From positions 2,119,982 through 2,183,981 of the forward strand of contig NC_090421.1 in NCBI RefSeq assembly GCF_036365525.1: 64,000 bases of DNA, written 5' to 3'. The DNA is from Heterodontus francisci. Lineage: Eukaryota. This document shows, piece after piece, positions 23,801 through 36,328 of the stretch; the first letter of the stretch is position 1, and the number at the start of each line of letters is the position of its first letter. Both the position numbers and the translations under genes were made by a program. Below the pieces are notes generated by a model that worked only from the letters and a program-made list of their open reading frames with translations, had not been told where the DNA came from and did no database searches.

Positions 23801-25154
23801 AAGTACAGTACATCCACCAGTTTCCCTTTATCCACAGGACATGTTACTTCTTCAAAGAACTCCAATAAATTGGTTAAACATGATTTCCCTTTCACAAAAC
23901 CGTGTTGACTCTGCCTGATTACCTTTACTTTGTCTAAATGCCCTGCTATAACGTCTTTAATAATAGCTTCTAACATTTTCCCGAAGACATATGTTAAGCT
24001 AACTGGCCTGTAGTTTCCTGCTTTCTGTCTCCCTCCCTTTTTGAATAAAGGAGTTACATTTGCTATTTTCCAATCTAATGAACCTTCCCCGAATCTAGGA
24101 AATTTAGGAAACTTAAAACCAACACATCAACTATCTCACTAGCCACTTCTTTTAGGACCCTAGGATGAAGTCCATCAGGACCCGGGCACATGTCAGCTCA
24201 CAACTCAAACAATTTGCTCAGTATCACTTTCCTGGTGATAGTAATTTTCAAGTTCCTCCCTCCCATTTCCTGACACAGCTATTTCTGGGATGTTACTTGT
24301 ATCCTCTATAGTGAGACAGATGCAAAATATCTGTTCATCTGCCATCTCCTTACTTTCCATTATTAATTCCCCAGACACATTTTCTATAGTGATGTGAAGC
24401 ACTGCAGAACCAACAGACAGTGCCAGAATACAAACGAGAAAGAATGAAAGGACTTGCATTTCTATAGCACCTTTCATGACCTCAGGATGTCCCAAAGCAC
24501 TTCACAGCCAATTAAATACTTTTGAAGTGCAGTCACTGTGGGAATGTAGGGAACGTGGCAGCCAATTTGTGCCCAGCAAGCTCCCACAAACAGCAACGTG
24601 ACAAATGATCAGATAATCTGTTTCATTAAGTGTTGGTTGAGGGGAAAATATTGGCCAGGACACTGAGGATTGACTCCCCTAACCTTCTTCAAATTAGTGT
24701 CGTGGGATCTTTTACATCCACTCGAGATGGGGAGACTCAGTTTAATGTCTCATCTGAAAGACAGCACCTCCAATTGTGCAGCACTCCCTCAGTACTGCAC
24801 CGGGAGCGTCAGCCTGGATTTTATACTGAAGTCTCTGGAGTGGAACTTGAACCCACAACTTTCCTCACTCTGAGGGAAAAATACAGCCAACTAAGCCAAG
24901 CTAAACTATCAGCAAAGCAGATGAATAAATGTGACTGGCTTGATTTTCCGCCATCCAATACATTTGCAGGCCATTAGACTTACAGCATCCCAGACTGCAG
25001 CAGCAACTCCCAGATCAGCACTGAAGTTCTGCGTGATCTTTAAAACATGTCCACAAAACTCATAACTGCTCTCCTCTGTATAATAGTCTGAAAAGAGACC
25101 ATCATCCACGGGGAAAACACTGCACAAATGTTCTTCCACCTGGCTTTGCATCAT
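20888..25154 (-). CDS. EEF1AKMT3: EEF1A lysine methyltransferase 3 (METTL21B), intact, 228 aa: join(25154-24984, 23148-23037, 21291-20888)
   Basis: Exon 1 [41 protein letters not shown]|gtaagt. Exon 2 (ttttcag|) [38 protein letters not shown]|gtaagt contains SAM motif I. Exon 3 (catcag|) [39 protein letters not shown] contains the DxxY motif. Lengths 171+112+404=687 nt with consistent phases; collinear with human METTL21B as I recall its sequence. Confidence 0.95.
21380..21700 (-). mobile_element. L2-like 3' fragment just upstream of EEF1AKMT3 exon 3 (copies at +20394 and +40821)
   Basis: Reverse complement of the 8215-8403 type tail (aaaggcactatataaagttgttgttg). Confidence 0.55.
22825..22967. 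repeat. Inverted repeat, 61-bp arms with a 21-nt loop (copies about 2380-2522, 43219-43361, 63646-63788)
   Basis: 22825-22885 is the reverse complement of 22907-22967 with 5 mismatches. Confidence 0.85.
23196..24388 (-). mobile_element. CR1 LINE, internally deleted (copy about 43590-44782)
   Basis: Same RT motifs as 2750-3935. Confidence 0.9.
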
Positions 25155-25788
25155 CCTCCCTAACTGGATTATCTTTCACTGACCAATGGGTACTTTCCAG
25201 TCTCCACTGCCTCTGTCGTGATTGCAGGATGAATTTGTTTCAAGATGTGTTTCCTTCTGTGAAAAAGAAAGAAAACAGGGGTAAAAAACTTGCAACGCTG
25301 TGCTTTGAAAGGGGGAGACATTTAAAAATCTTCGAGCTGATGGCATGTGCAGCACCACGGGGGTTGTTGGGTGGGCGGAGTCCATGTTTAGCTGCTAAGG
25401 TGCCTGTGCCTTTCAGGCCACTGCTCAGGTACTTCCTGCAATAAAGAGATCTAATCAGGCAGATCCTGAAGCACTGAGTATCTAAAGTGCTGAAGGAAAG
25501 TACTGTGGACTGGCAGTGCTTGTAAATTCCGAGCTCTGCCCTGGGTGAGGCCAGGTGAGCAAAGTCAGAAAAACAGCAGGAAATGACTGGCTTTCTTTGA
25601 AAATCTGACACCTTGAAGTGTGATGGACGCACACGAGCTGCAAGATTTTGTTGGAAAGTTTGCAGCATAGCTCACAAAAGGCTCATAATCATAAATCCTT
25701 TTCATTTAATACACTATTTATGTTTTGATTTAGAAAAGTAAAGACAATTTTTATGTTTAAATACATCAGGATCACTCTTCCATCACAG

Positions 25789-26684
25789 AGTGTAATGTGT
25801 CCAAGTTTGTTGACAATACAAAGTTAGGGGGAAATATAAGAGGCTGCGAAGAGATGTTGACAGGTTAAGTGAGTGGGCAAAAAGGTGGCAGATGGAGTAT
25901 AATGTGGGGAAGTGTGAGGTTATTCACTTTGGTTGTAAGAATAGAAAAGCAGAATATTGTTAAAAGGCCTAAAACTTCTAAATGTTGATGTTGAGAGAGA
26001 CTTGGGGGCACTCGTACAAGGTACACAGAAAGTTCGCATGCAGGTACAGCAAGCAATTAGGAAGGCAAATGGAATGTTGGCCTTTATTGCAAGGGAATTG
26101 GAGTACAAGAACAAGGAAGTCTTGCTACACTTGTACAGGGTTTTGGTGAGACTATACCTGGAGTACTGTGTGCAGTTTTGGTCTCCTTATTTAAGGAAGA
26201 ATATACTTGCCTCGGAGGCAGCACAGCGAAGGGTCACTAGATTGATTCCTAGGATGAGAGGCTGTGTAAATTGGGTCCATATTCTCGAGTTCGGAAGAAA
26301 GAGTGGTGATCTCACTGAAACATACAAGATTCTGAAGGAGTTTGACAAGGTAGATGCTGAGAAATTGTTTCCCGGCTGGCGAATCTAGAACACAGGGGTG
26401 CAGTCTCAGGATAAGGGGCCGTTCATTTAGGACTAGATGAGGAGAAATTTCTTCACTCAGAGGGTTATGAATCTTTGGAATTCGCTACCCCAGAGGGTGG
26501 ATGCTCAGTCATTGAAAATATTCAAGGCTGGAATCGACAGATTTTTGGTCTCTCAGGGAATCAAGGGATATGGGGAGCGGGCAGGAAAGTGGAATTGAGG
26601 CAGAGGATCAGCCACGTTGGTGTTGAACAGTGGAGCAGGCTCGAGGATCTGTGTGGTCTACTCCTGCTCCTATTTCTTACGTTC
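25789..26684 (+). mobile_element. CR1 LINE 3' fragment (copy about 46183-47078)
   Basis: Same as 5335-6226. Confidence 0.9.
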
Positions 26685-34000: not shown

Positions 34001-34188
34001 TTCCGAAGAAGGGTCACTGACCCGAAACGTTAACTCTGCTTCTCTTTCCACAGATGCTGCCAGACCTGCTGAGTGAATCCAGCATTTCTTGTCTATGGAC
34101 CATAACCCAGCCTTCAGGATTGGGGTAGAAGGGAAGCACACTACATTGGGATGTTCCCAGCAGCTTTACTGTTATAGTTTCCACCTAC

Positions 34189-36328
34189 CTGTTGAAGGTC
34201 ACTGCTGAACCTTTCTAAGGCCTTCTTACAATTTGTAAACGAATATCCTGTCCTTTTCCGAAGTTTCAGGAGGAGCTCTTTATCAGCTGCCATCAATCTA
34301 ACCCCAGAACAGTGCAGAAACTGGGTTGGTTGTGCAGAGAAGATCTAACAAAGACAAACGGAAATCTCAGGGAACTTTGTAACACGATCAAAGCTTTGGA
34401 CTTTTATTGCACAGATTTTACCTACACATTTACACATCAGTGCCAGTGTTACTAACATTCTGTCAAAGGCCACAATCCCAACTCATGCAAAGTTATGAGC
34501 GGCATGGACAGAGTGGATAGTCAGAAGCTTTTTCCCAGGGTGGAAGAGTCAGTTACTAGGGGACATAGGTTTAAGGTGCGAGGGGCAAAGTCTAGAGGGG
34601 ATGTGCGAGGCAAGTTTTTTTTTACAGAGAGGGTGGTGAGCGCCTGGAACTTGCTGCCAGGGGAGGCGGTGGAAGCAGATACGATAGCGACATTTAAGAG
34701 ACATCTTGACAAATACATGAATAGGAAGGGAATAGAGGGATGTGGGCCCTGGAAGTGCAGAAGGTGTTAGTTTAGACAGGCATCAAGATCGGCGCAGGCT
34801 TGGAGGGCCGAATGGCCCGTTCCTGTGCTGTACTGTTCTTTGTTTGTTGTTCTTGCTTGAGACGCACTCTCAGGATTGCTGCAACTCAATACCCTGTAGT
34901 GAGGGCATGTAGTTCTGTGCTTACTATTCCCCACACGGTGAGATTCTCAATCACGTCACAGTGGGCAGCTGTCCTGTGAGGCCAGGCACTTCCTCACAAG
35001 AGAAAAAATAATCTCCAGCACTAATAATAATTGTTCAAAACAGTAGTATCTCAACCTCCAGTTCACTGTCACGTATTTTTATAGATATTAATGCACAGGT
35101 AGGGCCGGGGGAAACTTGGCTTCTCAATGTATTCACCAAACCATCCAAATTTTATACAGGTAAAAACTCAACCTAGGTGTAGGCAAATTAGATGTAGAAT
35201 CAGGCTAAAATAGCTTTGGATTGTCGCAAACCCTTCATTTATTTAAGTATGATGGCGTGGAACGTCCTGCCTGCAACAGTAGTAGACTCGCCAACTTGAA
35301 GGGCATTTAAGTGGTCATTGGATAGACATATGGATAAAAATGGAATTGTGTAGGTCAGATGGTTTCACAGGTCGGCGCAACATCGTGGGCCGAAGGGCCT
35401 GTACTGCGCTGTAATGTTCTAAAAAAAAAATATGACACTTAAAAGAGATTTGTTTAAAAAAGCTGTAAAGACTGGAATTTAGAAAATGCTGGAAAATACA
35501 TAGCAGATCTTTCATCTTCTGAAAGAGAAAAGACAGGTTTGCATTTCAAGGCAGACTCCTGCTCAGTTCTGGCCTTTTCTTTCTCAGAAGCTTAAGGGGC
35601 TACTGTGTATTCCCAATATTTTTGATGGACTCATACTGCACAGGAGGTCATTCGGCTCATCGTCTCCATGCCAGCTCTTCGAAAGAACAATTAATCCCAC
35701 TACCCCTGCTCTTTCCAAACAGCCCTGCAAATTTCTCAAAAATATCCAATTCCCCTTTTCAAAGTTATTATTGAATCTGCTCCACCACCCTTTTCTGGCA
35801 GTGTATTCCAGGTCACAACTTGCTGCTAAAAAAAAATCATTTCCTTCCTGGATTTTTTTTGCCAATTATCTGAAATGTGTCCTCTGGTTACTGACCCTTC
35901 TGCCATTTTCTGTTTTTATTAATGAATAACAAGTGTATATTAAACAATGCCGATAACTTTGCAGTGATGTTAGAAGCATGGCCTTCAGAGATATAATCAG
36001 CCAAAGCTGCCCTCTCCCTCCTTGCCTCTGCGGTCACTCAAACTGCATGCCTGAAGGCTTAATCCAACTTGCTGGCTGAGGGCGGTCTCACACCGAAATC
36101 GCACCAATGAGACAGCAGACGCTCGCAAATTGTCTTTTTTCATTAGCCAACGCCCCTGCCAATCACCCGCTCCCAACAAGTTCAGTTGGTTTGCACAGCC
36201 TGCGGCCTTCGAATGATTTCCGCCAGTATTTTAAAACCCTTATGGCTGATGAAGGTCCAAGTGGAAAGGGTTTGTTTTACCTTGGAGATATCGGCTCGAG
36301 CGCTCCGCAAAGCACACAACACAGCCAT
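34189..36328 (-). pseudogene. TSFM: TSFM 5' fragment: exon 1 36328-36281, exon 2 34344-34189
   Basis: Copy at offset +20398 with the same splice sites. Confidence 0.9.

Follow-up and report, generated by a model that had tools for sequence, protein, structure and literature searches.

The window analysed here is a stretch of 64,000 nt from the horn shark Heterodontus francisci (contig NC_090421.1, positions 2,119,982 to 2,183,981 of the forward strand; G000:C51:2119982-2183981). Its locus is best explained, with a probability of about 0.68, as a tandem duplication of recent date, in four units, that covers the methyltransferase gene EEF1AKMT3 in full together with exons 1 and 2 of the EF-Ts gene TSFM. 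Its junction lies near the tip of a young mobile palindrome, 4-5 bases beyond the apex, and this palindrome likely triggered the break; the splices leading from TSFM into EEF1AKMT3 are probably minor and mostly non-functional by-products. An earlier sequence-only reading of the same DNA had placed its interest in these splices, and in particular in a mitochondrially targeted methyltransferase that might arise from them.

Array architecture and the duplication junction

The window, extended to the left and right by flanks of 80 kb (224 kb in total), was compared with itself. All coordinates are window positions, with negative values and values above 64000 lying in the flanks. A total of four head-to-tail units of some 20 kb were found, each composed of about 17.6 kb of non-minisatellite DNA and a 32-bp minisatellite, and each carrying the whole EEF1AKMT3 gene (minus strand), a tRNA-Gly gene (plus strand) and TSFM exons 1-2 (minus strand). 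The units and the parts of the junction are the following:

-15839..1745, unit U0, non-minisatellite part
13601..31190, unit U1, non-minisatellite part
33999..51583, unit U2, non-minisatellite part
54422..72011, unit U3, non-minisatellite part, running past the window end (64000)
33999..34092, unstranded, remnant of the palindromic element at the duplication junction: one 88-bp arm, the apex (34004) and 4-5 bases
31199..33998, unstranded, 32-bp minisatellite, the left 2.86 kb of an ancestral 4.6-kb array (72024-76684)
31034..31165, unstranded, second half copy (tail and one arm) of the same element family, 97% identical, in every unit

To the right of U3 stands a minisatellite of 4.6 kb (window-equivalent 72024-76684), after which the DNA is unique. 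At the other end, U0 alone continues into TSFM exons 3-6 (-18324..-22828), which were recovered by tblastn, a Pfam EF_TS profile search of the genome having returned no match. The sequence-only reading had TSFM exon 2 (34344-34189) ending in a phase-0 donor at 34189 with no exon 3 downstream, and this holds, exons 3-6 being found only to the left of the array. Searches of the genome detected exactly four copies of TSFM exon 2 and four of EEF1AKMT3 exon 3 in the assembly, all on this contig (C51). Pairwise divergence between the units was 6-21 substitutions per 17.6 kb (identity >99.7%), with five substitutions common to U0 and U1 against U2 and U3, and these patterns amount to more sequence types than two single-copy haplotypes would give. 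Moreover, all four EEF1AKMT3 coding sequences encode an identical protein.

The native TSFM intron 2 contains a perfect 177-bp palindrome (-15922..-15746; G000:C51:2104059-2104235), its two arms of 88 bp separated by a single nucleotide, which forms an element of about 230 bp together with a one-sided tail and a 13-bp target-site duplication. It is the sole perfect palindrome with arms of at least 20 bp in the 224 kb, with a G+C content of 50% and a computed single-strand hairpin energy of -117 kcal/mol. The three junctions (13601, 33999 and 54422) are identical, comprising one arm, the apex and 4-5 bases, after which the minisatellite starts at the point matching 74879, with a microhomology of 2 nt between palindrome arm and minisatellite. 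The chance of one of two breakpoints falling within 5 nt of the apex is about 1.4e-4, a value calculated post hoc. The minisatellite, which had been taken for a TSFM intron, is instead ancestral DNA upstream of EEF1AKMT3 that was attached by the duplication.

These positions are read directly from the assembly, and the chain of events that they suggest would have begun with the insertion, visible in the native copy, of an element with a perfect 177-bp palindrome into TSFM intron 2. The element may then have been extruded as a cruciform or hairpin, or have stayed open during insertion, and have broken at its tip. The 2-nt microhomology suggests that end joining linked the broken tip to the minisatellite, which lies 20 kb upstream, and the identical junctions, together with the substitutions shared between neighbours, point to expansion of the unit by unequal crossing-over. 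Thus, the palindrome is the likely trigger of the tandem duplication. Palindromes are established as break sites, including intronic palindromic AT-rich repeats (PATRRs) (PMC7999016). As in the human PATRR11/22 translocations described there, the break lies inside a long, near-perfect intronic palindrome and the rearranged copy is no longer palindromic, the PATRR-like features of the shark junction being the breakpoint 4-5 nt from the apex and the 2-nt microhomology. In contrast, the shark palindrome has a G+C content of 50%, is 177 bp long and mobile, with many identical copies, its partner is a minisatellite and the outcome is a tandem duplication.

Two other features of the array, the first of which bears on its assembly, are given below:

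2310..11294, a gap of 13 N and, after it, a 9-kb duplicate of the U0 end that is likely a false overlap (from the self-comparison)
16789..16860, plus strand, tRNA-Gly(TCC) gene, with an identical copy per unit (also 37189-37260, 57610-57681 and one left of the window)

Next to the gap, the sequence at 2324-11294 duplicates the end of U0 and matches U0 wherever U0 and U1 differ, apart from one private base. It has many homopolymer deletions, one of them frameshifting coding exon 2, and is devoid of EEF1AKMT3 exon 3. Judged from these features, it is likely an unmerged contig end, that is, a false overlap.

Beyond the array, a 1.2-kb segment is repeated at 99.3% identity 191 kb apart, flanking the array on both sides (-70752..-69534 and 120694..121911). 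METTL1 exons were located at G000:C51:2250210-2250677, about 60 kb upstream and on the same strand as EEF1AKMT3; in human, METTL1 and EEF1AKMT3 are arranged head to head. Furthermore, more than 10 matches to the last exon of Methyltransf_16 genes lie within about 0.5 Mb at C9:110.60-111.07 Mb, with others at C6:96.5 Mb and C11:115.4-115.6 Mb, and the C9 cluster suggests an expansion of EEF1AKMT3-like paralogues. Several shark and ray proteins named 'EEF1AKMT3-like' show about 52% identity.

The palindromic element family

A scan for the element family gave 1278 candidates, of which only the best 40 hits were scored, and all 40 of these best hits were 100% identical over the 177-bp palindrome. 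In the 41 loci examined (native copy and L017-L056), direct repeats of 10-17 bp (median 14) flank every element, compared with 0/41 at >=8 bp in a shuffled-flank control, and a tail of about 45 nt is present on one side only, again in 41/41. Read relative to the tail, the apex base varies among the 41 otherwise identical palindromes, with 24 carrying C and 17 carrying G. An inverted structure with a one-sided tail, the latter listed at 30-40 bp for Penelope-like elements, was found at all 41 loci. The palindrome is a very young mobile retro-element copy with Penelope-like anatomy.

For Penelope-like elements, an inverted copy with a one-sided tail has been described (PMC8557442), and their protein has been seen in vitro to cut both strands and to extend them (PMC11167929). 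The likeness to the insertions in these accounts includes an inverted beside a direct copy, a tail of 30-45 bp at one end only and AT-rich targets, whereas the shark element is minimal, non-coding and perfectly palindromic, with one variable apex base and target-site duplications of about 14 bp.

In Rfam, no family matched the palindrome at the gathering score, and the sub-threshold matches were hairpins, with no hammerhead among them; a hammerhead-like core in the element is putative. A search for GIY-YIG frames did not identify the autonomous partner of the element. In one of three loci, a GIY-YIG frame is preceded by a 95% identical copy at a distance of 150 bp, and since the family has 39 hits in 224 kb, such a linkage may be due to chance. 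The loci L058 (G000:C353) and L059 (G000:C35) hold open frames of 382 and at least 593 amino acids (aa), respectively, each ending in a GIY-YIG domain, and these are likely Penelope-like elements.

Tentatively, and with the odds somewhat against it, an active Penelope-like element in this shark may be mass-producing perfect palindromes of about 180 bp whose tips are germline break sites. The locus would then be one such case, a single tip having given rise to both the array of four gene copies and the new chimeric transcripts, and the nearly equal share of C and G at the apex would record either two-strand insertion or cruciform flipping. In the literature covered, to which subscription journals and repeat libraries did not belong, no paper was found that deals with this locus or with shark breakpoints at palindromes of this kind.

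Transcripts and protein products of the array

The gene parts involved in splicing, all on the minus strand, are the following (UTR, untranslated region):

36281..36343, TSFM coding exon 1 of unit U2, with the RefSeq start at 36343 and the ATG of the sequence-only reading at 36328
34189..34344, TSFM exon 2, with a phase-0 GT donor, covering Pfam EF-Ts_N positions 3-44 of 60
27390..27835 (5' end approximate), EEF1AKMT3's own first exon, CpG-rich, containing the cryptic acceptor 27718
26211..26717, repeat-derived 5' UTR exon with a GC donor, from RNA contigs, continuity through its middle being presumed
24984..25256, EEF1AKMT3 first coding exon (aa 1-57), with 102 nt of UTR, an internal donor after 25184, the TGA at 25178-25176 and the ATG at 25154
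23037..23148, EEF1AKMT3 coding exon 2 (aa 58-95), with a helix, strand 1 and motif I
20888..21291, EEF1AKMT3 coding exon 3 (aa 95-228)

Contigs from three runs of one sample of this species and from one run of a close relative (organism B), all presumed to represent RNA, were compared with positions 20400-27860, that is, with the EEF1AKMT3 side alone; such contigs drop rare forms. EEF1AKMT3 is spliced from a first exon lying inside each unit, with the joints 27390->26717, 26211->25256, 24984->23148 and 23037->21291, and single contigs are continuous across the acceptors 23148 and 21291 and across 27718. Since each unit contains this first exon, the copies are not dependent on the TSFM promoter. 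In organism B, the first exon is spliced straight to 25256 and exon 26211-26717 is skipped, one contig of 3019 nt being without TSFM sequence. In this species, that exon adds five upstream ATGs, and the native 5' UTR reaches about 1055 nt with up to 10 upstream ATGs. At 27806, the first-exon contig of two runs carries the base of the U1-U3 type, and that of the third run stops at 27805. Contig depth (168-280 in this species vs. 24 in organism B) was not used as evidence.

Chimeras running from TSFM into EEF1AKMT3 are modelled at the locus by RefSeq, whose alternative models of this kind generally rest on RNA alignments, and they include the exact exon 2->25256 junction (P0104 and P0002). In P0104 (XP_067880587/597, 231 aa), TSFM residues 1-73 lead into 25256, the exon is left at the internal GT donor after 25184 and coding exon 3 follows; P0002 has the same structure begun at a Met in TSFM exon 2. 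The model P0098 joins TSFM exon 2 to the cryptic acceptor 27718, with a product of 108 aa. Of the chimeric mRNAs foreseen by the sequence-only reading, the exon 2->25256 junction is present among the models, but the modelled long fusion, by leaving the exon 5 nt before the TGA, bypasses that codon and loses motif I. Moreover, 25256 and 23148 are not the next acceptors, as had been stated, the RefSeq-modelled 27718 and the RNA-supported 26717 preceding them and closing the TSFM frame after 35 and 2 codons, respectively. A total of six routes from TSFM exon 2 were computed (products of 108, 75, 99, 231, 244 and 76 aa), of which four stop within 2-35 codons, one is without motif I and one, the exon 2->23148 fusion, is open but unsupported. 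In the RNA contigs, compared on the EEF1AKMT3 side alone, no TSFM junction was found among the listed joints or loose ends, which in contigs that drop rare forms suggests that the chimeras are minor. From the RefSeq models, it is inferred that splicing also runs forward from the orphan TSFM promoters, in most cases ending in stops. Pfam EF-Ts_N and Methyltransf_16-type domains occurred together in 1/97 and 0/10 homologues, the one being P0002, this species' own model.

Read-through in the native direction (EEF1AKMT3 to TSFM) is modelled in a sawshark (P0115 and P0117). NCBI merges the two genes into one in the sawshark and in two Mobula species (P0115, P0116, P0117, P0008, P0010 and P0109), pointing to read-through splicing common to sharks and rays. 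A human METTL21B(EEF1AKMT3)-TSFM read-through chimera has also been reported (PMC4422297, PMC12564374, PMC11128028), with the same gene pair, strand and order and with inter-gene splicing as in the shark. However, the human chimera runs from EEF1AKMT3 to TSFM without rearrangement, whereas the shark direction, from TSFM to EEF1AKMT3, needs a duplication or back-splicing.

Regarding the geometry of the junction, the first base of acceptor 25256 does lie 102 nt before the ATG at 25154, in frame and with the single TGA (25178-25176) in between, and the arrangement recurs at 54612->45650/43542. The third instance claimed, 13791->4803/2702, has to be set aside, its target lying in the likely false 9-kb overlap, with coding exon 2 frameshifted and exon 3 absent. 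Furthermore, being one TGA short of a full fusion had been presented as notable, but it is at chance level: in 50% of the non-coding stretches of 102 nt in the unit, a given frame contains no more than one stop, and the frames agree in one case out of three, giving a chance of about 0.17, so that nothing marks the TGA as a special barrier. In the 102-nt piece before the ATG, the remaining two frames have two stops and one. The TSFM part, given as 68 aa, is probably 72-73 aa long, as P0104 and most of the orthologue models viewed start upstream of 36328. A sense codon at the position of the TGA, the search for which had been suggested, was read in only 2/14 other shark and ray models (Arg, both from Chiloscyllium punctatum), while 10/14 start at the same Met and 2/14 have other N-termini. 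In organism B, the exon with the TGA has four differences, and none of the three listed falls in the TGA. A conserved N-terminal extension across the TGA was considered and rejected, with read-through in two of the 14 models, from one species.

The native EEF1AKMT3 protein has 61% identity and a TM-score of 0.96 (by target) to human METTL21B (4QPN), as an AlphaFold2 model with a mean pLDDT of 88. The seven-strand fold, motif I, the post-I Asp, DxxY and the N-terminal Trp are all present in the model and alignment, and the native shark copies match methyltransferase family 16. The first coding exon supplies a beta-hairpin and the invariant residues I40, L48, G49 and W55, and strand 1 and motif I come from coding exon 2. 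The RefSeq fusion P0104, which skips coding exon 2, is without 15/38 invariant positions, W55 among them, and without the N-terminal hairpin, strand 1 and motif I, and is therefore predicted to be inactive. The exon 2->23148 fusion is in phase 0 and open over 239 aa from the ATG at 36328, as had been described (244 aa from the RefSeq ATG at 36343). It retains motif I and, of the strands in the native model, strand 1 and all that follow, lacks aa 1-57 with the N-terminal hairpin and W55, and could fold, judging from that model.

On the TSFM side, coding exon 1 and the start of exon 2 encode a predicted mitochondrial presequence of about 38 aa (net charge +3), and in the white-shark TSFM orthologue the alignment with mature bovine EF-Ts begins at about residue 39. 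The EF-Ts part of the chimeras is incomplete (Pfam EF-Ts_N 3-44 of 60): 2CP9 aligns to residues 41-90 of the orthologue, and the chimera ends at 72 in that numbering. The human enzyme is cytosolic and centrosomal and methylates eEF1A at Lys-165 (PMC5416902, PMC10238732), depending on GTP (PMC5416902).

Competing explanations and significance

The exon 2->23148 fusion might still yield a mitochondrially imported methyltransferase acting on EF-Tu or another matrix protein, as the sequence-only reading proposed, given that its frame has no premature stop, its presequence is intact and strand 1, motif I and all later strands are retained. However, three acceptors would have to be skipped, the fusion is not among the RefSeq models found and contigs run unbroken through 23148 with no branch there. 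The protein would also lose the N-terminal hairpin, I40, L48, G49, W55 and the start of a helix, its EF-Ts domain is cut at 44/60, the human counterpart works outside mitochondria on eEF1A in a GTP-dependent manner (PMC5416902) and the array is too young to show selection on a chimeric protein. A new mitochondrial methyltransferase is thus unlikely, and as an account of the locus this one is extremely improbable. That the array is kept by selection for the dosage of EEF1AKMT3 or tRNA-Gly, with the TSFM fragments as passengers, is very improbable as well: the four EEF1AKMT3 coding sequences with one protein and the four identical tRNA-Gly copies agree with it, but with so few differences between the units (6-21 substitutions per 17.6 kb), youth alone is expected to leave a 0.7-kb coding region intact, and the data come from a single individual.

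A regulatory role of the extra TSFM promoters is unlikely, although more is to be said for it. A chimeric mRNA would encode a 99-aa peptide, followed by re-initiation 21 nt later at the EEF1AKMT3 ATG, adding enzyme with TSFM-like expression and bypassing a UTR rich in upstream ATGs. The exon 2->25256 junction of the RefSeq models, the three additional TSFM promoters and the native UTR of about 1055 nt with 10 upstream ATGs fit this proposal. The re-initiation that the sequence-only reading invoked is also possible in mammalian cells after a long first frame, having been seen after 126 codons and at spacings of 6-243 nt, and it can protect from decay (PMC6614817). In the same source, however, it is best after short frames and at a spacing of about 78 nt, and the stop of the 99-aa frame lies 304 nt before the last junction, so that conditions here are unfavourable. 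The summed depth of native incoming contigs, close to that of the exon (151+18 vs. 187; 369+12 vs. ~415; 284+11 vs. 264), is a weak hint in the same direction. It is likewise quite unlikely that the array is largely an assembly artefact of misjoined haplotypes, with the chimeric junctions arising by back-splicing of EEF1AKMT3-to-TSFM read-through RNA. The 13-N gap and false 9-kb overlap inside the array, the >99.7% identity of the units and the native-direction read-through modelled in sawshark and reported in human (PMC4422297, PMC12564374) would all be accommodated. Nevertheless, four distinguishable substitution types are present, and an overlap alone would not create a 2-nt-homology junction, thrice identical, at the apex of a palindrome.

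A tandem duplication broken at the palindrome is therefore preferred, and several points weigh against it. The apex base is G at the junctions and C in the native copy, a difference that a simple break does not explain and that needs a flip of the centre or the use of the other strand. A Penelope-like identity is putative for the element, and the U1-U3 base at 27806 could equally be a plain allele. Moreover, the junction and the copy number come from the assembly alone, with the gap and the false overlap inside the array. The contigs do no more than suggest that chimeric transcripts are minor, as the EEF1AKMT3 side alone was compared, rare forms are lost and a further 4295 loose ends and 549 joints stood outside the listing.

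In Drosophila yakuba, tandem duplications cutting through genes are known to form chimeric genes (PMC5460883). The shark locus resembles those described there in that a head-to-tail duplication sets the 5' part and promoter of one gene before the exons of its neighbour, and differs in that the downstream gene is whole, with its own first exon, and that there are four units, known here from assembly, models and contigs. Chimeras from tandem duplication are therefore of a known kind, and the source of the break is what differs at the shark locus. What results is an EEF1AKMT3 gene in four intact copies, each with its own first exon, together with four tRNA-Gly genes, a single intact TSFM and three TSFM promoters left orphaned. 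With the proposed mitochondrial methyltransferase unlikely, the fusion as first proposed is of modest interest. The breakpoint matters more, since it connects a gene duplication, to the exact base, with a mobile element of very young age, and the variable apex base can be used to study how such elements complete their insertion. If the link holds genome-wide, retrotransposition would have supplied shark genomes with fragile sites that are fresh and identical and number in the hundreds or more.

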